Below are positions 1 through 47,223 of a stretch of DNA of 64,000 nucleotides, one piece after another. Source of the stretch: Octopus sinensis (taxonomy: Eukaryota); NCBI RefSeq assembly GCF_006345805.1, contig NC_042999.1, positions 168,082,001 through 168,146,000 on the forward strand, read 5' to 3'. The notes under the pieces are model-generated. The model searched no databases, was not told the DNA's origin, and worked only from the letters and a program-made list of their open reading frames with translations. Position 1 is the first letter of the stretch. Each line of letters begins with the position of its first letter. A program made the translations under genes and the position numbers.

Positions 1-243
1 GCCTGAATAATCATCATAATTCAGTGCAATCATTAACAGTACTTTCAAGCAATTCAGCCCTGAGCAACGCCGGGCAATTCTGCTAGTCAACAAATAACTG
101 ATGCTTCATTACCATTCTTGGATCATCAAATCCAGCCAATCTAAACCATTGTTTCAACTTTATTAACATATAAGAAGTAAATGCATATATACCTTATTCT
201 AAACAAATAAACTGGTAGCAATGAGAAAGCTGATAATTCTTAC

Positions 244-365
244 TTTTTCAACTCTGGAATCAAGATCTTGATTATCCTTGCTGCCTAAAAATAGATCACA
301 GTACCTGACAGCCTGTTCAACTATGGCAGCTGGTAATCTGAGAATTTCTCTTTTGGTTTTCTTTT
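244..365 (-). CDS. TTLL3: TTLL3/TTLL8-family exon G; gene continues beyond the left edge
   Basis: Acceptor gtgctgttcag, donor AAA|gtaaga; QKKTKREILRLPAAIVEQAVRYCDLFLGSKDNQDLDSRVEK resembles TTLL3 FVDEALCACEEYL...HMDID; phase 1 entry matches exon F. Confidence 0.85.
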
Positions 366-2276
366 CTGAACAGCACAATAAGAAACAAGAATCATCAGAA
401 CATGTGGTTTAGTAAATAAATAAGCCATGATATTAAAGGTAAGAAATAAACATCATGCATGTGAAAGAATTTCAACATTTTCAGTTGAAAAATTAGAGTA
501 AAAGATATTAGTAATTCTTTTTAATAAAGTCATGAGAAATTTAAAAAATCATATTTGATGGATATATGAGTAAGGGCCTGGTTGTTTCCATAAGATTGCT
601 TCACAATCACATGGTTACAAGTTCTATCCTACTGCATGGCCTTGTCTGTAAAATTCAGTACACAGAAACTGTATAGAAATTTGTAGAATGGATTTTCCAG
701 GTAAGCTATAAAGTGTATTGTCACTTTCCTCACAAATCAGGAGAGCCATGCAAAGCTCATCATCAATATTCTTCTTCCTCTTACTAAGTCATAAAAAAAA
801 AATTATCATCCACAGATGTTGGTAAAAATATATCTAGATTACCTTACTAGTATCATCTTTTAGTTTGAAGAGAAGGGCATGATCCTTTTCAGGGCAAAAG
901 ATAGAGTTTACTGGATGTGAGAAAGAATATCCAGTTTCCATATGCTGCTACAATTATTTGCCTTGACTAACTTTCATATATTTTGATCATGATGTGGCGA
1001 GGAACATTGAAAGCTAAGACTAACTGTGCTTATTGTCTAACAAAGAACATTATACTGAAACATAATTAAGATTGGATATGATAATGACATGTAAAACATT
1101 TGAATGATATCAGCAGTCAATGTCAGCAAAGAAAAAATTATAAAGAAGGAGAAAGTAAATATGATAACAAGCTTACAGTATTGGCTTTTTTTTATATATA
1201 TCCAAATTTTGACATTTGGTCAAGAAATGTCAAATTGATGAAGTAAGGATAGAAGTGTTAAAGAAGCTTTTATCTTTGACTTGTTTCAGTCATTTGACTG
1301 TAGCCATGCTAGAGCACTGCTCTGAAGGGTCTTAATCAAGCAAATTGATCCCAGGACTTACTTTTTAAAATCTAGTACTTACTTTATCGGAATCTTTTGC
1401 TGAACTGCTAAGTCACAGGGACATAAACACACCAACACTGGTTCTCAAGCAGTAGTGGGGGACAAATATAGACACAAAGGCACACACACAGATATATGCA
1501 TCATCATCGTTATCATTTAACATCCATTGTCCATGCTGGCATGGGCTGGACAGCGTAACCAGGGCTGGCAAGCTGGGGAGCTGCACCACGTTCCAGTCCG
1601 ATTTGGCAGGATTTCTATGGCTGGATGCCCTTCCAAACACCAACCACTTTACAGTGTGCAGGGTGCTTTTACGTGACACTGCACAGGCACTTTTATGTGA
1701 CACCACACAGGTGCTTTTACATGGCACCGCATGGGCACTTTATGAGTCTAGTTTTTAGACTAGTTTCCAACTTGCATTGGAACTTCATGTGACTGAAATG
1801 AATACATGTGATTTCTCTCTTTCTGTCCATGAAGGTATAGCTGTGTGGTAAGAAGTCTGCTTCCCAACCACATGGTTCCAGGTTCAGTTCCACAGTGTTG
1901 CACCTTAAGCAAGTGTCTTCTATTGTAGCCTCAGGCTGACCAAAGCCTTGTGAGTGGATGTGGTAAATGGAAACTGAAAGAAGCCTCTGTGTGTGTGTGT
2001 GTGCGCGCATGTGTGTGTGTCTTTGTACCTGAGTTTGTGGCCCACTACTGCTTAACAACCAGTGTTGGTGTGTTTATCTCCCTGTAACTTAGTGGTTCGG
2101 CAAATGTGATTGGTGGAATAAGTACCAGGCTTAAATAAAACAAAAAAAGTTAAGTCCTGGGGTTGATTCATTTGAGGCAGTGCCCCAGCATGACCACAGT
2201 CTAATGGCTGAAACAAGTAAAAGATAAAAGCAAAGTGTTTACACCCATATTACTAAAATTTCTAGCTATAAATATA

Positions 2277-2670
2277 TAGGAGTGGCTGTGTGGTAAGTAG
2301 CTTGCTTACCAACCACATGGTTCCGGGTTCAGTCCCACTGCGTGGCATCTTGGGCAAGTGTCTTCTGCTATAACCTCGGGCTGACCAAAGCCTTGTGAGT
2401 GGATTTGGTAGACGGAAACTAAAAGAAGCCCGTCGTATATATGTATATATATGTGTATGTGTCTGTGTCTGTGTTTGTCCCCCTAGCATTGCTTGACAAC
2501 CGATGCTGGTGTGTTTATGTCCTCCGTAACTTAGCGGTTCGGCAAAAGAGACCCATAGAATAAGTACTGGGCTTACAAAGAATAAGTCTTGGGGTCGATT
2601 TGCTCAACAAAAGGCGGTGCTCCAGCATGGCCGCAGTCAAATGACTGAAACAAGTAAAAGAGTAAAGAGT
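2277..2670 (+). mobile_element. Young tRNA-derived SINE family 1 with internal (TA)n(TG)n and (AAAGAGT)n tail
   Basis: A box TGGCTGTGTGG, B box GGTTCAGTCCC, cttgggcaagt block; many near-identical copies in this window. Confidence 0.9.
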
Positions 2671-2825
2671 ATATCATCATTTTAGCATGCACCTTTCTAT
2701 GCTCGCATGGTTTGGATGGAAATCATTGAGGTGGATTTTCTACGGCCAAAAGCCCTTCCTGTCGCCAACCCTCACCTGTTTCCAAGTGTGTGCGTGTATG
2801 TATATATATATATATATATATATAG

Positions 2826-2873
<48 letters not shown>

Positions 2874-4139
2874 ACACATACATACATACAGCAAGATGAT
2901 GGATGGTTGATCTGTCTTAAAACACAGATACTAGATTGCAATTGGTTACTTCTTAACTAGTATTTGAATCCCACAAATATAAGTTATGTTCATTATTAAC
3001 AAGTTGAGGGAGCCTTTACATACTTGCTCAAATTGCAAGAAAAGGTAGCCAAGTCTCTTCATATCACACCCTACTAGCTTCACACCACTAGAAGGATCAG
3101 TCTTCACACTTCTACTGTGGAGTACAAGTCTTCGTGAGAATGACAAGGTGTAAGTTATCTTGGCCCTATATATATATATATATATATATATCACCATCAT
3201 CATTTAATATCTGCTTTCCATGTAGGCATGGGGTGGACAGTTTAACAGGAGCCAGCCAGGTAGAAGACTACTCCAGGTGACTGTGTCTGTTTTGGCATGA
3301 TTTTTACAGATGGTTGCCCTTCCTAACACCAATCACCCTAAAGAGTGGACTGAGTGCTTTTTGCATGATTAAGAATGAGGACAGAAACAGGTGTGTTGCT
3401 GAAGAGGAGATACATGGTTACCCAGAGAGAGAGAGAGAGAGTTAACAAGAAAGTGGACAGAAACAGGTGTGCTGCTTTAAAGGAGATGCATGGTTACCAA
3501 GCCAGAGGTAAGAACAAGAGAAGTGGGGACAGAGGGATCAAGGATGAGGGCAGAAACAGGTATGCTGCTGAAGAGGAGATACATGGTTACCCAGCCAGAA
3601 GGAAGAGGAAAGGAAAGAGAGAGAGAAAGTGGGAGACAGCAAGAGAGAGCAGGGAAGAAATGGTGGCAAAGAGTCAGGGTACAGTTGCAAGGAATGGGGT
3701 TCAGAGCATAGATGAGATGGTAGAGTAAGGAAAGGAGAGATCAATGATGGCAGGGGCCAGGACATATTACCAAGGTATGGAAGTCATAATATAGATGGCA
3801 GGGTATTGCTAAGAAGTTGCAAGTAGGGAGAGGAGATGGAGAATGTTGTAACTGATGAGAACTTACATAGATAGCAATGATACAGTGAGCAGGGGAGTGA
3901 GGACAGGATTGGCAAATGGAAGATAATCATAGAGTATGAAGAGGAAATGTGTGGAAGAGAGGAGAGGAGATGCAGTTTGGGACCGAAGATGTTCTTTGGA
4001 TCAAATCAATAAAAAATATAAATCATATTAAAAACATCAATGTCACACTTATTAATTTTCTTTTCTGAAAGCTCAGGCTTTGTATCTACACAAAACGCAA
4101 TTTTCAATCTTACTAGCATCATCATCATTATTATACAAA

Positions 4140-4336
4140 GGGGCAAGATGGCAGACTCGTTAGCATACCAGGCAAAATGCTTAGCAACATTTCATCCAAC
4201 TATGTTCTGAGTTCAAATTCTGCCAAGGTCAACTTTGCCTTCCATTCCTTTGGGGGTCAATAAATTAAGTACCAATCAAGTACTGGGATCAATGTGATCG
4301 ATTTTCCCCATCCCCCAAAATTTCAGTCCTTATACC
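4140..4336 (+). mobile_element. SINE family 2 (Nin/Deu-like central domain); copies at about 8270-8495, 8510-8720, 28590-28780(-), 33612-33810(-), 57539-57763(-), 59270-59490(-)
   Basis: gagttcaaattc B-box-like word, gcctttcatcctttcggggtcgataaaataagtacc block, (ATT)n tails; the 57539 copy has a 9 bp TSD gccagtacc (57530-38 and 57764-72). Confidence 0.8.
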
Positions 4337-4337
4337 C

Positions 4338-4517
4338 TAGATGTCTCGCAAACAACTTGCACATGCAAGTGCTACCAGTCAAAAGCTTTGTATACCGGAA
4401 ACTAGCAAGTGTATGGGGTCATCAGGAGAGAATGCGCGCCGTTTCGGGGCCTATCTCTTGACGGCATCAATGCGCACCAGCCCCCCTCACTGATATGAGG
4501 CCCCACTTGTTAGATCA
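4338..4517 (-). repeat. 3' terminal direct repeat (3' UTR) of the HERO-like element
   Basis: Aligns without gaps to 8042-8221 (16 mismatches in 180 nt by hand count) and to about 47044-47222 on the opposite strand. Confidence 0.95.
4402..4513 (-). ncRNA. Candidate permuted hammerhead-like ribozyme (3' repeat copy)
   Basis: Same motif; first stem I base mutated (GUC^AAGAG); predicted cut between 4460 and 4459. Confidence 0.42.
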
Positions 4518-7500
4518 GCAGGTTATTAAAATAAGCTCAATATCCTTCTATCCATCGCTCATCGTCTCTTTTTAACCAAATCCAGTGGCTAGCCTTCTCC
4601 ACTGTAGATTGGATATCAGTCATGGTGGTATTGACTTTACGATGAGTTAGGCCTAGCGATAACAACAGTCGTCTCACGCTGTGTCCTACAAACCCTCTAC
4701 ATCCGACTTTGATAGCAAAATGTTCCGCTTTCCAGCCTACGTCTTCACATTCCTCGAGGAGGTTTTCATAACAGTTCAATTTTCGAGCCCGAGCGGCGTC
4801 CATATTATCTTCATGAAGAACCGTTAACTCGACTATATTTACAATGTTCCTTCTTTCACACCACATCAAAATATCTGTATTTTTCGTAATTGGGATGGGA
4901 AAGAAAACCTGGCACCCAGGTAAATCTGCAGTTACCTCCCAATAGCCGTTCCACTTTTCATTTCTCTCAGAAAGTTTCTTGATCTTCTTCTTGAAACGGA
5001 TCTGCTGACCTGGTCGCACGAAGGTAACAAAATCTCTAGATGGTACTTTTAACGGTTTTTTTCTCAGTGTTGTTGAGATGAATTTGGTTCTTTATAGCAT
5101 TGAAGATAACCTTAATGACCAAGTTGTGCCTCCATGTGTACCTGTTCAATGCTAATGAACAGTTGGAAAGAATATGTTTCAGTGTACCGACCCTTCCACA
5201 TTTGCAGATGTCATTCTCTGAGACGTTCCATCTTACTAGATTCGTAGGTGATGGCAAAACATCATAAGATGAACGAATCAGGAAACTCAGCCGAGATGTC
5301 GTCCACTTCCACATCTCATCCCAACTTATCTTCCTCTCAACAACATGTTCTTCACATCTCGTCATCTGACCTTGATGAACACATCGGATCAAATGAAGCT
5401 CTCTTCTCTCTGCTTCTCTTGTTTTGACGCTGTTGCTAATAACAGATCTGCGTTCACTCCGCATCATGCTTGCAAATGGTCTGAACTGATCCGCGCCAAA
5501 ACCAAATCCTTTCCGATGGTTCTGCGTTGCTTCCACCATATCTCTGTGTATAAGAGAAGACAAGATGTCATCAGTTTCTGCTTCTGCTTTCCACTTCCTG
5601 GCTGCTTTCACCTCTGGTGGGTTATGCGTGATTTCCATATCCTTCGATTCTCTCAGCATCATGACTGTCCGTATCTTCCCCAGCTTATATATTTCGACTA
5701 TTGATGCTATTGGTAGCTGCAATGAACCTCTTTTATGATAAAAAGCTGAACTGTTCAACATACGAGGTAGACCTAGCCACTTTCTAATGAACGCATTAAA
5801 TTCTTGTTCAATGATTTCAACTCGTGACAATGCTACTTCGTATATTAAAAGTGGCCACGCGAGTACAAGCCGAACTGCAAGCACCAAATTTTATAGTTAC
5901 CTGGTAACTTCGAATTATCAATCGCCGATAACCCAGCCTCGGCCTGTTTCATAATTTCAATCCCACGACTTCTCTCTGACAATGTTCCAGCGTATACTCG
6001 TCCCAAGCTCTTGACGGGCTCTTCCTTGACTGTTGGAATGCTTTCTTCAGATATTCGAAACTTAAATTCTTTCTGCACTCCCTTAACAAATGTCAGACTA
6101 CGCGACTTTTTTGCTCTAAATCGCATCCTTGACCACCTCACAAGTTTGTCTAATCTCAAGAGGGCATTCTGCATGATTTGTTTATCTGTAGCTAGAAGTG
6201 TCACGTCATCCATGAAGGCTTTCTTAGGCGATTGTACATGGACGATTTGTTCCAAAAAATCTACAGCTTTCAAAATCATCTCCATGACTAAGATAAACCA
6301 TGTGACAGATATTGTACAGCCAGCAGCAATGCAATCTCCAATCGGAGCCAATCTGTTGTAGAATCTCCGGTTGTAAACCTCATTTCGAAACTGTCATAGT
6401 ACATCCTCATTACTTTGATCACTTTGTCTGGAATGTGGAAGTGGTCCATGGCTCTCGTGTGTAATTCGTGTGGCACTGAACCATATGTGTTAGCTAGATC
6501 GAGCCATACCACATTCAGACTTTTCCTGTTCTGTTTGGTGTCCTGGATCGCTTTCCAAATCGAAAAACAGTGTTCAACGCATCCAGGGATCCCGGGAATC
6601 CCGTTATTCTGTAAATATGTCACTGTTCTCCTCGACAGAATTCCCATAAAGATCTTGCCTTTCACATTCAATAAGGATATCGGCTTAAACTGTTTAATGG
6701 TCTTTGCATTGGCCTCTTTCGGCAGGTATATACCTTCTGCCTGACACCAATCCTCTACTATAGTCTCCTCGCGCCACAGTTGTCGGAGTAGGACAAAGAG
6801 CTTCTTTCGCAGACGATTGCAGTACTTGTAGACTTTATATGAGATGCCATCACCTCCTGGGGCACTCTTTGCTCTAGCTTTTCTTACGAAGTCATTCACC
6901 TCTCTCTCCCTGATGTCCCCAATCTGGAATTCGATATCAGGTCCTGAGAGATGATTTAGCCCATGTAGAGGTGGCAGTGGCTGGTTACGGAGAGAATCGC
7001 TGTCGGTTTCCTTGATATGAGCATCCAATTCTTCTTTTGTGCATGATAAAGAACCAGTCTTCGGTTCATTGAACAGCTTCTTAATAAACCCGTACGGGTC
7101 CTTCAGAAACTGCCTCCGAGTCCTTTTACTCTCCTTTCGACGCTCATATCGGCAGATATGTCATTGCACATAACGACATTTCCTCTTCAAATCGTTATAC
7201 AGCAGCGCAAGGCCAGGTTTCTCATCTAGTGTAGCACATCTCCATCGCTTTCTTAGGTTGGTCTTTTCCTTCCTCAACTGCTGTAATTTCCTGATCCTCC
7301 TGCTTGGTCCACACTTTCCTTTCTCTAGTCGGATATTCTCTTTTACTCCAAATAAATATTTTCCTATATCGTATATTGAGCTTGATAATTTACCCAGTTT
7401 CTCCACTGTAGAGCCTGTCATTTTATAAAGAGCCCGACAAACCTTGTTTTCAAACTCTTTATATTTCCCTTTCTCATTAGCAGCAGGCCACAAAACCCTC

Positions 7501-8041
7501 GGTTTCCTCTGAGTATTATCCGATGCACCAGTTTCATGACTTGTAGTTTCATCACGTGAAGAGGTCTCTGCAGTAGCATTTATCGATCCGCTGTGGTTTG
7601 AGTCCGGGGATGATTTGCCACGTGTTTTACGATCTGATGATCCACACTGCTCTGTCCTCTTCTCACAAGTCTTTCCCTGATGTATCTTCAAGCCCATCAC
7701 AGTTGCAAAGGTTCTATAGCGCTGCTTGCATCCAAAGTTGTTTGCATTTCGTTCACTGTTTGAATGAATAACCGTACTCGTTCCCAAGGTCATTCCCGTG
7801 CTGACTGGGTTTGATTGATTCTCGACTCCCCCCTCTCAGTCAATCGTGGGGCTGTCATTTCCATTCATTTCTGTTACAATATATTACAAAGGCGAGGATC
7901 GTAAGTCCGCAGCCTCCACCGGTCTTTCCTGGTGTCGATAGTCTTTCCTATTGTCCGCTCGTCTTTCCGAGCAGTCCTCTTGTCTTTCCAAGATGCCTAA
8001 CCGTCTTTCCGGTTTGTCAGTGGTTCCCTACCACAAGGTCT

Positions 8042-8221
8042 TAGATGTCTTGCAAACAACTTGCACATGCAAGTGCTACCAGTTAAAAGCTCCGTATACC
8101 AGAAGCCAGCAAGTGTATGGGGTCATCAGGAGAGAATGCCTGCCGTTTCGGGGCCTACCTCTCGACGGCATCAATGCGCACCGGCCCCCCTCACTGATAT
8201 GAGGCTCCGCTTCCTAGATCA
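8042..8221 (-). repeat. 5' terminal direct repeat of the HERO-like element (a copy of its 3' UTR placed upstream of the 5' UTR)
   Basis: Same 180 nt as 4338-4517 at an offset of 3704; abuts an (ATT)n tract at 8222. Confidence 0.95.
8106..8217 (-). ncRNA. Candidate permuted hammerhead-like ribozyme (5' repeat copy, core intact)
   Basis: Sense RNA: GGGGCC...GCCGUC^GAGAG-GUA-GGCCCC-GAAA-CGGC...CUCUC-CUGAUGA; predicted cut between 8164 and 8163. Confidence 0.5.
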
Positions 8222-8761
8222 ATTATTATTATTATTATTATTATTGTTATTATTAGCAGCAGCAGCAGTAAGGCAGTGAGTAGCAGAATCCTCAGTACCC
8301 TGGGTATTTCGTCCATCATTTCATTCTGAGTTCAAATTCCACTGAGCTCGACTTTGCTTTTCATCCTTTCAGGATTGACAAAATAAGTACCAGTAGAATA
8401 CTGGGATCAAAGTAATCAACTAATGAACTATTTCCCTCTCCAAAAATTTCAGGTCTTGCACCTATAGATGAAAGGATTTTATTATTATTATTATTATTGT
8501 GCATGAGGCTGTAAGCTGGCAGAATCATTAGCACACCGGACAAAATGCTTAGTGGCATTTCATCCATCCTTATATTCTGAGTTCAAATTCCACTGAGGTC
8601 GACTTTGCCTTTCATCCTTTTGGGGTTGATGAATTAAGTACCAGTGAAATATTGGGGTTGATGTAATTGACTAGTTCCCTCCCACCAAATTTCAGGCCTA
8701 GTGCCTACAACAGAAAGAAGAAGAAGAAGAGTCGCCGCCGTCATCGTCGTCATCATCATCA

Positions 8762-11700
8762 TTCAGTAGTCTTATTTTTATCACGGTGCTTTCACTGCAC
8801 TACTATGTACCTTGGTTATGCGCTGTGGTTTGTTGTGATGCTCTTATTTTTACTGTATTGAAAGTGTTACATAGGCTGTTGTGCAGTGCCTAGTAGTGCT
8901 ATTTTTTGTATGTTATATATACTTGTTAGTCCTGGTGTTTTTGTTATGTATTTGTCTGAATATATTTTTCATCATACCTAATGCGCCTACTATAACAGGA
9001 ATTGTTTGTTTTTAGACTCCACATTCGTGTTACCTCTATTTCCAGATCTCTGTATTTTAAAAGTTTCTCTGTTTCTTTAAGAGAAACATTATCATCTGTT
9101 GATATTAATACATCGATAAGAAAGCATTTTTTCTTGATGATCTCTAGCAACTATATCCAGTCTATTGGCTTTAATTTCTCTATCTGTGAGTATTAGCATA
9201 TTCCAGAGTCTGGTTGCTTTCTCATTTTCTGTGACCTTTTCTGGTGTGTGCCTATATCATCTTTTTTCTATTGTTATTCCATAGTGTTGGCATAGCTTTC
9301 AGTGTATATAGATTCCAACTTTGTCGTGTCTGTGAATATATTCCTTCTTAGCCAAGACTTGGCAGCCAGAGACAATATGATTTATTGTTTCTTCTCCATC
9401 TCCACATATTCTGCAGTTACGTGTTATGTTTCTTTTCATTATATGTTTTCGGAAATTTCTGGTGGGGAGGCTTTGGTCTTGTGCTGCAATTAAAAATCCT
9501 TCAGTCTCTGCTTTGAGTCCTGAGCTTCTCAACCATTGCTGGGATTTTGCTTTGTCTATTTCTTTTGCATTTAGTTTAACCCAGTATTTGCCATGAAGGG
9601 GGTTTTCTTGCCATCGTTTTATCATGGTTCGTTGCTGTTCTATTTTTAGTTTGGATTTCATTTGTTTTATAGCTTTTGTTGTTTCTTCTTCTTCTTCTTC
9701 TTCATATTTGTTAGGTGGTATGATTTCTTGTTTGTATTTGTCAGCTTCCTTAAATACTGAGAACAGTTTTTTGTTTTGCTCGTGTTTTGCCGCTATTTGT
9801 ATCATTTTTCCTTCCTTCTGAAGTAAATATTTTTGCAGTCCTATGGTGGTTATTTTATAGTAGTTTTCCAGCTGTATAAGTCCTCTACCACCTTCTATAC
9901 GTTGTATATATAGCCTTTCTATGTCAGATTTTGGGTGACGCATCCTAGATCCTGTCATTATTTTTCTTGTTTTCCTATCTATTTTGGTCAGTTCATTTAG
10001 TGTCCAGTTAAGGATAGTGTAGCTGTAACTTATAACTTGACATCATTTTCTCAGGATCCATTGTTGTCCCAGTTTTAGTTTGGATTTCAGTTGTTTTACA
10101 GCTTTTGTTGTTTCTTCTTTTTCTTCATAGTTGTTAGATACTATGACTTCTTTTTTGTATTTGTCAGTTTCCTTAAAGACTGAAAACAGTTTTTTGTTTT
10201 GTTCATGTTTTGTAGTTATTTGTATTAGTTTTCCTTGCTTCTGAAGTTGGTATTTCTGTAGTCCTATGGTGGTTATTTTGTAATAGTTTTCAAGCTGCAT
10301 AAGGCCTTTACCATCTTTGATATGTTGTTGGATTTTGGGTGGTGCATCCTAATTCCTGTTATTATTTTTCTTATTTTCCTGTCTATTCTGATTAGTTCAT
10401 TTAGGGTCCAGTTAAGAATACTGAAGCTGGGATGTCTAGAGTGCTGATACCTATTATCTTGTTTTTTGTATTGAGCTCTGTTTTCAGAATTAATCTAACT
10501 CATCTATAGCATTCTTTTCTTATCTTCTCTTTCATTTGTGTGTTGTATCATATCTAGTTCATTGATTCCTAAGTATTTGGTCTAATTTTCATATTCCATT
10601 AGCTTTATCTAGTGTGATGTTACTACTCTTAACTAGTTTTCCTCTTTTCAAGGTTGCTTTGACACATTTTTCTAAGCCAAATTTCATGCTTATTTTTTGA
10701 TAAATCTATGTACTGTCTGTAGTAATGTTTCCAGATGTTTATCATTTGTAGGGTACAGTTTTAGATCATCCATATATAAGAGGCGGCTGGTTGTTTTGAC
10801 GTGACAATTGTATCTACATCCAGTTCTGTTTAGCATGTCAGAGAAAGGTGTCAGTGCCAAGAAGAATAGGAGTGGAGAAAGCACGTCTTCCTGGAATATT
10901 CCTCTTCTAATGGCTTCGGTTTTTATGAGTCCCTCTTTTGTCTAGAGCTGTAGTACTGTCTGCCATTTATTCATGGAATGTTTTATATATCTTATGATTA
11001 TTGGTGCTACCTTGTTCATGGCTTGTATTTCTAGGATACATGTGTGAGGAATACTATCAAAAGCCTTTGAGTAATTGATCCAGGCCATACTTAGACCTTC
11101 TTTCTGCAGCTGTCTTCAGTTATGGCTTTATTGATCAGTAGCTGATCTTTACAGCCATATGAGCCCTTGCAGCATCCCTTCTACTCTTCTGGAAACAGAT
11201 TGTTTTCTTCAAGTTGTTTGCTCATTCTCTGCGATATTATTGCAGTTCAGTTGTTGCAGGGGTCCAGAGTTGTTCAGGTGCTGTGTCTGTTCTTTCGATA
11301 TGTCTTTGCTGAGGTTGTTCATTCACCAACCATATTTCTTTCCAAAATTCTTCCACTTCTTCTGCTATTGGTGCTGTACTGATTTCTATTTTATTTTTGC
11401 CAAGTTCTTGGTAGAATCTTTGGGGTTGGAGTTGAACTGTTTGTTTTGTTCAAAGAAATGTTGGCATTTCTCATACCGTTAGATTCTTTGTGCTTTGGCA
11501 AGGACATCTTGCTTTAGTTGTTCTTTTACTTCAGGTATACCTTGCTCTGTAATTTTGTAATTTATGTAGCATTTATCTTCCCTTACTGTCGCTTAGTAGT
11601 GTTGATTGTCTACTAGTTTCATTAAGGATTGATAGATCTTTTCTTTTCTTTTCTATTTTTTCTGGATATTATTTACCCATAGGGTTTGTTTGGGTGGTGA

Positions 11701-12725
11701 TGCTCCTATTTGGATGGGTTTTAGAGGGTATCCAGCTTTTTTTGTGTCCACAGAGGCTGCTGCATATATTATATCATTTAGCCTGGTCATACTGACATTT
11801 GTTTCTGCTATTTATTATCAATTTTAATTTTGGGGAGGTATAATCAGTGGTCCATACTGAGATCTGTGGCTTTCAATTCTTTGATTATGCTCATTTGCAG
11901 AATATTATAATCATTAGTTTCACCTTTGCTCTTTCCAGATTTTAGATTTGTTTCATATTGCCTCCCATTCATATTTGTGTCTGTGGTGTTCTTGTTTGGC
12001 GCCTTTTGCTCATCCTTATACATTCCTCTGATCAGGGTTTGTTGTCTTTCGTTGTTCACTTCATTTTTGTTGGACATGTAACGTCTGTCTTTGTGTTTTA
12101 CAGTCCCATTACTTCTGACATTATTTGGCATTGCTGTGTGGTTACTATCTACGTTTTACTATGAATTTTTTCGTTTAAGCATTCTATTTCTATTTCTGAT
12201 ATTTTTTTGCTTTGAGATTATATCTCCGTATGTTAGCTAGTTTATTAAGGGTTCAATGCTGTATCCAAATCATAATTTAGATTATTTTTCTTCCAGATTT
12301 TATATGTATATGTTGTGTTGTGTTTTCATTCTGTGGGTAGAGCTTCAATGTAAAATAAGCATATATGACTGAAATATATTCCTCACATGATTTTTCAATT
12401 TTATTTGCAGGACATGAGGAATAACATCTGGCCCTCTGTTTTGATGGTCATCATTTTCATAGGGTACCGGTCCATTCATTTCTAGGGTAAAATGGTTTTG
12501 CACAAGTAGTTTTTCATACTTTTAGTATAACAAGTTTAAAGCATGCATTTCCCATTTGTTATCCTTGGGTTGAATAATACAGGTATTATTTATTTTTCAT
12601 TTTTTTCTGTACATGGCGGTTGAGGATGGAAATGGTCTGATGTTGGTTGGATCATAATGTGGTGAGCGTGTTTACATGTGTTGTGCGAGTGATGGAGATG
12701 ATACACAGTTAAAATACATCACTTC
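8762..12725 (-). mobile_element. R4/Dong-like RLE non-LTR retrotransposon, decayed and chimeric
   Basis: ORF pieces LLYMDDLKLY, HPKSDIERLYIQRIEGGRGL, LHGKY, ETEGFLIAAQDQSLPTRN, CRICGDGEETINHIVSGC...RHDKV, CFLIDV; flanked by (CAT)n on the left and (TAT)n on the right. Confidence 0.85.
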
Positions 12726-46809: not shown

Positions 46810-47223
46810 GAATGTGAAGAAGCAGGCTGGAAAGCGGAACATTTTCCTATCGAAGTCGGATGTAGAGGGTTTGTAGGACAGTGTGAGACGACTGTTGTTA
46901 TCGCTAGGCCTAACTCATCGTAAAGTCAATACCACCATGACTGATATCCAATCTACAGTGGAGAAGGCTAGCCACTGGATTTGGTTAAAAAGAGACGATG
47001 AGCGATGGCTAGAAGGATATTGAGTTTAATTTCATAACCAGCTGATCTAGCAAGCGGGGCCTCATATCAGTGAGGGGGGCCGGTGCGCATTGATGCCGTC
47101 GAGAGGTAGGCCCCGAAACAGCGCGCATTCTCTCCTGATGACCCCATACACTTGCTAGCTTCCGATATACGGAGCTTTTAACTGGTAGCACTTGCATGTG
47201 CAAGTTGTTTGCAAGATATCTAA
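46810..47223 (+). mobile_element. 5'-truncated copy of the same HERO-like family inserted in a decayed RTE
   Basis: Closely matches the reverse complement of about 4338-4752 (end of the RLE domain plus 3' UTR), ending ...gatatctaa. Confidence 0.92.
47047..47158 (+). ncRNA. Candidate permuted hammerhead-like ribozyme (third copy)
   Basis: GUC 47098-47100, GAGAG 47101-05, GGCCCC-GAAA 47109-18, CUCUC-CUGAUGA 47130-41, outer stem CUAGCAAG/CUUGCUAG; one stem III mismatch (A47120). Confidence 0.45.

Follow-up and report, generated by a model that had tools for sequence, protein, structure and literature searches.

LINEs are generally supposed to be reverse-transcribed from a linear RNA, beginning at its 3' end. 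The copy considered here, a decayed and dead HERO-like LINE of the restriction-like endonuclease (RLE) type, lies at 8221-4338 on the minus strand of the window (a stretch of 64,000 nucleotides of Octopus sinensis DNA) and carries the end of its own tail a second time, directly ahead of its head. By what route of copying does the tail of such an element come to stand upstream of its 5' UTR?

The two repeats (8042-8221 and 4338-4517) align without a gap over 180 nt, with 91.1% identity and 16 mismatches, and on the minus strand the 5' repeat passes directly into the 5' UTR at TCTA/AGACC, where the slash marks the junction. The 3' end has neither a poly(A) nor a simple-repeat tail, and target-site duplications were seen neither at this locus nor at the 24 other loci inspected with both ends. 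An earlier note on this DNA had described both the redundancy and the missing tail, and its head-to-tail fusion stands too, with the border placed one base later than ours at a position that is ambiguous. Unit positions are counted from 1 (window 8041) to 3704 (window 4338), and the parts of the element are collected in Table 1.

Table 1. Parts of the element and a related copy, in window coordinates
Feature	Position	Strand	Remarks
5' repeat, second-pass run-on of the element's last 180 nt ('pseudo-LTR')	8042..8221	-	91.1% identical, ungapped, to 4338-4517
Predicted hammerhead-like motif in 5' repeat, S-G-C block order	8105..8218	-	stem II split over an extra upstream strand; cleavage predicted
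Tail-to-head junction TCTA/AGACC	8034..8049	-	also the zone of free 3' ends, the putative internal start of reverse transcription
5' UTR start with five hairpins, GGAAAGAC loops	7915..8041	-	loops at 8010, 7989, 7968, 7948, 7929
Broken single ORF, five pieces	4537..7867	-	N-terminal zinc finger, RT, CCHC knuckle, restriction-like endonuclease; motif labels from sequence reading
3' repeat, the element's true end, without tail	4338..4517	-	alignment to 5' repeat
Predicted hammerhead-like motif in 3' repeat, decayed	4401..4514	-	G>A straight after predicted cut site 4460
Solo 5'-truncated copy of the same family	46878..47223	+	345 nt of tail

The element and its relatives

The ORF of the window copy is broken by in-frame stops and frameshifts between its five pieces, two of which give weak RVT_1 matches just below the cut-off. 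A young genomic copy (L094) retains 793 open codons covering the RT, CCHC knuckle and restriction-like endonuclease, PF13966 is found on many relatives and R2 proteins are the best PDB matches of a full-length relative (P0016). The N-terminal zinc finger, and the CCHC knuckle followed C-terminally by a PD-(D/E)xK-like endonuclease, are motifs read by eye. At E <= 1e-30 there are 684 related proteins, the closest named one being an Octopus bimaculoides protein (87%). At the start of the 5' UTR the hairpins have a stability (z = -3.0) that none of 200 shuffles reached, and the loop motif recurs 3' of the tail in relatives L155, L156, L160, L166, L170, L181, L190 and L193.

We call the element HERO-like and take it as a putative member of the HERO clade. 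Insertion is mostly non-site-specific, a HERO-like trait, with unrelated flanks in 90 copies sampled in order of position; the part of PMC4640811 available to us describes HERO elements as mostly without target specificity. Some of the 90 copies sit in TA-type microsatellites.

Other classes of element were considered and rejected. The repeat, which the earlier note called LTR-like, is a run-on of variable length (10-990 nt) and not an LTR of fixed length, and with no target-site duplication and an RLE ORF the element is no LTR retrotransposon. Nor is it Penelope-like, the RT being of R2/LINE type and no GIY-YIG family having been found, or a retrozyme, its unit being 3.7 kb long and coding, without an Rfam hammerhead match.

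A junction shared by the family

A genome query spanning the junction was biased and was replaced by one made of the 5' UTR only, for which 40 matches were listed. Thirty-six of these cross the junction, corresponding to 22 independent events when a 14-locus amplified cluster and one duplicate pair are each taken as one. The cluster shares a 367-nt tail and internal deletions (flanks were checked in 2), and the two loci of the pair have common flanks. All of the best 30 listed matches have tail sequence upstream; the remaining 10 comprise six that cross the junction and four that end at unit position 30-40. None of the 40 listed stops exactly at the junction.

When the loci of both genome queries are taken together, 30 independent events cross the junction, their tails measuring 10-990 nt (median about 200). 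The junction strings displayed are free of indels and added bases in 30 of 30 cases, differing by substitutions only, in copies with 75-100% identity to that of the window. In distant relatives, too, metagenome contigs run from tail into 5' UTR or wrap round (e.g. L145, L155, L156, L160, L161, L166, L168, L170, L181, L193). The tail-to-head junction is a trait of the family and is not specific to this locus, and it recurs with variable upstream length, the outcome that the earlier note had set as a check of its reading. The 180-nt run-on of the window copy is a matter of chance, one draw from 10-990 nt: tails of 180-181 nt occur in only two of the 30 independent events, and 5' ends at 175-185 nt in none of the 90 position-ordered free 3' copies. 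It had been pointed out that the repeat begins almost where the structured motif does, and here the first motif strand does lie no more than about 3 nt from the repeat start, again by chance. Among the junction loci fetched from this genome, the longest run-on is 990 nt and no copy contains two or more full units.

Internal deletions offer a comparison within the same family. Their 14 joints have scattered breakpoints, with two different joints in one insertion (L129), whereas the junction is invariant; ordinary RT jumps thus look different. Long-range pairing as the cause of a deletion hotspot was rejected (-84 kcal/mol vs -93 +/- 9 in control windows). One metagenome contig (L190) has two families only 68% alike joined head to tail, and may be an assembly chimera. 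In contigs assembled from sequencing runs the junction is bridged by 31-36 nt in three of four runs but, since genomic copies carry the same junction, these contigs say nothing about circles. No RNA dataset was listed as containing the element, the RNA labels of the datasets being guesses.

Where reverse transcription starts and stops

Free 3' ends were collected with an exact 31-nt tail pattern, which gave 686 matches and favours young copies. From the first 100 listed places, 90 were examined as a position-ordered sample, leaving out one place that is L130 and the last nine rows. Best-match samples of 3' ends are biased by length or subfamily, and lengths were for this reason counted on the position-ordered sample only.

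All 90 free 3' ends lie within 0-8 nt past GCAAGACA and lack a tail, and none is followed directly by element sequence. Among the 21 that match through TCTA, five run at least 2 nt into the letters of the 5' UTR (1.2 expected; p 0.005), an excess of microhomology beyond TCTA that comes from those 5 copies. The pattern of these ends suggests that the template continues past the apparent 3' end of the element, and that priming would be internal, inside a continuous template.

First-pass 5' ends form a broad peak at 250-450 nt (median 319), and second-pass lengths are somewhat shorter (KS p 0.048). The predicted cut site of the motif described below corresponds to a length of 122. Only one of the 90 first-pass ends falls within 10 nt of it and 83 pass beyond; for second-pass ends the figures are none and 23 out of 30. 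A missing stop at the predicted cut site is equally what a motif that does not cut would give.

Do the two repeats share a template?

In 15 copies with both ends, the repeats within a copy share derived variants more than cross-copy pairs do (0 of 100,000 permutations), and the same permutation test on 11 younger copies also gave 0 of 100,000. When the own 3' repeat of 14 copies was ranked by shared derived variants against 125-164 sequences, it came first in five cases, second to sixth in three and 18th to 154th in six. Across the family, the two repeats of a copy thus appear from their shared variants to stem from one template. An origin from different subfamilies, which the earlier note had named as speaking for independent insertions, does not fit this grouping of same-copy repeats.

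The clearest single copy is L094, whose repeats differ at 3 positions in 984 nt and share 22 derived changes, of which 9 are rare. Private changes make up 1.2% of its body, and the Poisson probability of such repeat identity, if those changes arose after insertion, is 1.4e-7; gene conversion or assembly homogenisation could also be the source of the identity. The window copy behaves otherwise. No derived variant is common to its repeats, two recurrent sites differ between them in opposite directions, and by shared-derived score its own 3' repeat ranks last, 154 of 154. Five further copies (L091, L098, L127, L128 and L129) are also uninformative on the kinship of their repeats (ranks 18-80). 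As the window copy is uninformative, the one-template reading applies to the family and not to this copy, whose repeat divergence of roughly 9% is, as had been said of it, undecisive. Pooled over copies, the private changes gave no support for an A>G editing footprint (78 A>G vs 60 T>C, p 0.80).

A hammerhead-like motif

In the 5' repeat the predicted cut falls after the C of GUC at 8164, with GAAA at 8149-8146 and CUGAUGA at 8129-8123, and stems III, I and IIb are of 6 bp each. In the 3' repeat of the window copy a G>A change breaks the first pair of stem I, and the descriptor finds no S block. The distance from predicted cut to predicted cut is 3704 nt (8164 to 4460).

The motif was surveyed in 72 metagenome relative loci with a descriptor consisting of stems I and III around NUH; 37 of the loci have at least 200 nt after the ORF. 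It is present in 29 of these 37, some of which are near-duplicates, the controls giving 0 (reverse strand) and 1 (ORF windows). Pairing in stems I, III and IIb reaches 90.6% over 24 hand-picked motif copies (38-44% in slid controls), and two-sided changes occur in 14 of their 16 pairs. The core letters and the NUH triplets, which are GUC, GUA, GUU or AUA among relatives, are kept across elements whose proteins are about 32-60% identical.

As in type SGC hammerheads, CUGAnGA, GAAA and NUH stand in S-G-C order with stems I and III. In that type the strand after CUGAnGA also pairs directly with the one before GAAA to form stem II, and this stem was not found: its closing pair is present in 0 of the 24 copies, its pairing of 39.6% equals that of shuffles and it has 0 bp in 35 of 37 loci. 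What precedes GAAA and what follows CUGAnGA each pair with a strand lying upstream, over 4.7 and 8.9 bp respectively on average (3.2 and 6.0 bp in shuffles). By its anatomy the motif would be a hammerhead, and it is a predicted cutter, but because the direct stem II is missing it is not assigned to type SGC. Without a canonical stem II, and against the uninterrupted Block C assumed in PMC10085705, it may not cut.

Rfam returned no ribozyme family in window 1-12000 or at four intact-motif loci; what it did return was miRNA noise driven by microsatellites. By single-strand MFE the 3' repeat does not fold more stably than its shuffles (z 0.02), which is expected for a pseudoknotted, decayed copy. 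HDV-like, twister and pistol folds were sought by eye at the junction and none was found.

A proposed circular template and its rivals

On balance we consider it probable that the predicted hammerhead cuts in both repeats, that the ends of the resulting 3704-nt unit are joined and that the RT copies this template more than once round. The proposal starts from what the copies display directly, namely a head-to-tail junction, a variable run-on, matched repeats, the missing tail and a conserved, covarying motif. A transcript reading through both repeats would be cut after GUC in each, and the unit ends would be ligated or else held by the ribozyme's own stems. Target-primed reverse transcription would then start inside the circle, some 120 nt downstream of the cut, with a few bases of microhomology. 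Most events would abort within 250-450 nt; a few would complete the circle and continue beyond the start for another 10-990 nt, and this run-on would rebuild the upstream ribozyme that the daughter needs.

If the motif does cut, the unit ends must be joined, since the cut site is crossed without a stop or scar and the priming site is crossed again. In a linear RNA, a working cutter lying 120 nt upstream of the point where the RT starts would separate that point from the ORF; in a circle it would do no harm. Against the circle stand the L190 contig, whose head-to-tail join of two families cannot come from one circle, the discordant repeats of the window copy, the ability of the RT to jump (L129), the somewhat shorter second-pass lengths and the lack of a copy with two full units among the junction loci fetched.

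A linear template could give the same arrangement if an uncleaved transcript of a terminally redundant or tandem parent were primed at the downstream junction and copied to any point in the upstream repeat, the motif being a protein-binding fold or slow cutter and gene conversion keeping the repeats alike. This needs no ligation and would account for the exactness of the junction, for copies that pass GUC without stopping and for the microhomology beyond TCTA; it would also suit a motif that is not a canonical hammerhead and the tandem structure reported, in what we could see of the source, for Zebulon. Without a true tandem parent, however, the redundancy could only shrink from one generation to the next, and no such parent was seen among the junction loci fetched (longest run-on 990 nt; 40 matches listed per search; assemblies may collapse tandems). 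The repeats of an aged parent would moreover differ by about twice its age, whereas those of L094 differ by 0.3% against an expected 2.4%, and the core letters and NUH triplets are conserved across proteins about 32-60% identical. We regard this explanation as unlikely. R2 is capable of end-to-end template jumping, and a programmed jump, in which both ends of a linear RNA lie at the junction and the RT, on reaching the 5' end, resumes precisely at the 3' end of that molecule or of a sister RNA, perhaps via a few repeated bases, strikes us as improbable in its turn. The accessible text of PMC11100668 reports that DRT2 makes precise head-to-tail concatemers from a non-circular RNA, the RT of this family jumps within templates (the 14 deletion joints), and jumps between different RNAs would explain both L190 and the discordant repeats of the window copy. 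With 0 of 40 listed matches stopping at the junction, though, such a jump would have to succeed nearly every time (almost 100%) and leave no scar, in contrast to the 14 scattered joints; the junction is unpaired in the predicted fold, nothing is known to make precise RNA ends there, and the conserved ribozyme core 120 nt upstream would be left unexplained.

That a truncated copy landed beside a full-length one, by chance or target preference, was the alternative raised in the earlier note. The window copy taken alone is compatible with it, its repeats having no shared derived variant and differing at two recurrent sites. As a mechanism for the family it is excluded by the free 3' ends, of which 0 of 90 run into element sequence although most insertions are truncated, and by the grouping of same-copy repeats; the same junction in 30 of 30 displayed cases also speaks against it, and we hold two independent insertions to be very improbable.

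Implications

The circular reading can be put more broadly: a widespread clade of autonomous R2-like LINEs would move via a covalently closed circular mRNA, made by a previously undescribed split-stem-II S-G-C hammerhead, with internal priming and a roll past the start that renews the ribozyme. In this general form we rate it as possible, a little short of probable. If true, target-primed reverse transcription would have a second route in internal priming on a circle made by a ribozyme, the tandem structure reported for Zebulon in 2003 would gain a testable cause, RLE LINEs would be tied to the logic of Penelope and retrozymes, and hammerheads would have an added wiring that breaks an assumed rule. 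The paired repeats offer a molecular clock for single LINE insertions, like LTR pairs, and an RT that accepts circular templates would be of interest for RNA-based gene insertion.

Relation to known systems

Zebulon, or HEROTn, of Tetraodon belongs to the HERO clade. Like the window element it is an RLE non-LTR element with a tandem head-to-tail structure, as far as the title of the paper tells (Bouneau et al. 2003, PMID 12805276), a precedent for a tandem RLE LINE that the earlier note did not mention. In the open-access literature we found no report of a ribozyme or of a circular RNA or template in HERO elements. Judging from the parts of these sources that were available, a tandem structure in an RLE LINE is already in print, as is the cleave-ligate-roll model for Penelope and for retrozymes (for the latter PMC7229834; 10.64898/2026.07.22.740005).

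The motif has its nearest counterpart in the type SGC hammerheads represented by HRIMA-1, with which it shares the S, G, C order, covarying stems I and III and a short linker from the strand of stem I to that of stem II; cleavage of that type has been validated, so the topology can work (Eckert et al. 2023, PMC10085705). There, CUGAnGA leads straight into stem II, whereas here the two strands pair with an upstream strand and in 0 of 24 copies with each other. The HRIMA-1 type SGC motifs come from metatranscriptomes, and the text available to us names no retrotransposon host (PMC10085705).

R2 has a 5' HDV-like ribozyme, to judge by titles in reference lists, and resembles the window element in its single RT-RLE ORF, its target-primed reverse transcription and a ribozyme that frees it from a longer transcript. 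It differs in having the ribozyme at the 5' end of a linear RNA, priming at the RNA 3' end, site-specific insertion and no regular tail-to-head run-on. Metazoan non-LTR retrozymes, as described in the accessible parts of PMC7229834 and 10.64898/2026.07.22.740005, have a hammerhead-bounded unit, circular RNA and tandem genomic copies, but are small, non-coding and Penelope-linked, whereas the window element is an autonomous-type LINE of 3.7 kb. For Penelope itself, self-cleavage, ligation and reverse transcription of more than one unit have been proposed to make the tandem (Cervera and de la Pena 2014, PMC4209133, in the portion available), and the Penelope elements with pLTR hammerheads resemble ours in their partly tandem arrangement, in having a hammerhead or hammerhead-like motif in either repeat and in the cleave-ligate-roll model. 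Penelope has a telomerase-like RT, a GIY-YIG endonuclease and minimal type I hammerheads, where the window element has an R2-like RT-RLE ORF and an S-G-C motif with split stem II.

Internal deletions in the family

Fourteen internal-deletion joints were found in genomic copies of the element's family (L128, L130, L129, L127, L099, L111, L108, L113, L118, L071, L080, L067 and L263), and the ~1.1-kb derivatives are the product of these deletions. Numbering the unit from the 5' UTR start (1) to the 3' end (3704), the 5' side of the joint lies at unit 645-824 in 12 of the 14 and the 3' side at unit 3073-3563 in all of them, the latter overlapping the 5'-truncation peak (250-450 nt). Breakpoints differ in nearly every copy, L099 and L080 being nearly coincident. 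Long-range pairing was considered as an explanation of this hotspot and rejected, as it does not account for it.

Rearranged and amplified copies

A 3'-truncated family copy with a 367-nt tail (3'-end sequence repeated upstream of the 5' UTR) has been amplified inside a larger DNA repeat, with 14 loci seen; at one of these, L124, the arrangement is inverted. Two other rearrangements, an inverted duplication of the 3' part of a copy and a tandem duplication within another, are listed in the table.

Locations of features in the window and in family copies
Feature	Location	Strand or orientation
Amplified 3'-truncated copy, 367-nt tail	G000:C18:3.78-5.16 Mb and several unplaced contigs (L120-L124)	
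3' part of copy, duplicated	L099:3184-4383 (oriented)	inverted
Segment duplicated within copy	L088, unit 3441-3603	tandem
Hairpin array, 5' UTR start	window 7915-8016	
Element flanks, with the short interspersed repeat that the element sits in and its further copies (by eye)	window 4130-4337 and 8222-8710	
Two further copies of that repeat (by eye)	window ~8270-8490 and ~8500-8710	
Different non-LTR RT element, remnants with CCHC knuckle	window 9299-10941	minus

The element itself (window 8221-4338) lies where a short interspersed repeat is ending, directly before the (ATT)n tract of that repeat, and two further copies of the repeat follow. About ten bases of the target seem to have been lost.

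Template and 5' end

In L094, a young copy with a long open RT reading stretch, private A>G changes number 11 vs 4 T>C, and in L117 14 vs 2, a surplus that is possibly an RNA-editing footprint in single templates. The excess is absent from the pooled private changes of full-length copies (p 0.80) and weak in the 3'-end set (p 0.04).

L117 is also among four copies (L115, L116, L117 and L118) that end at unit 30-40, within the first GGAAAGAC hairpin, a stop that may mark either a site where the RT pauses or the point where a linear transcript begins. The series of hairpins with GGAAAGAC loops that opens the 5' UTR is conserved in metagenome contigs of distant relatives (L155, L156, L160, L166, L170, L181, L190 and L193), and is a candidate element for binding protein or for driving cap-independent translation of an uncapped RNA. 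One of these contigs, L190 (positions 1-7300), carries a head-to-tail pair of related elements only 68% alike, either a real heterologous tandem or an assembly chimera.
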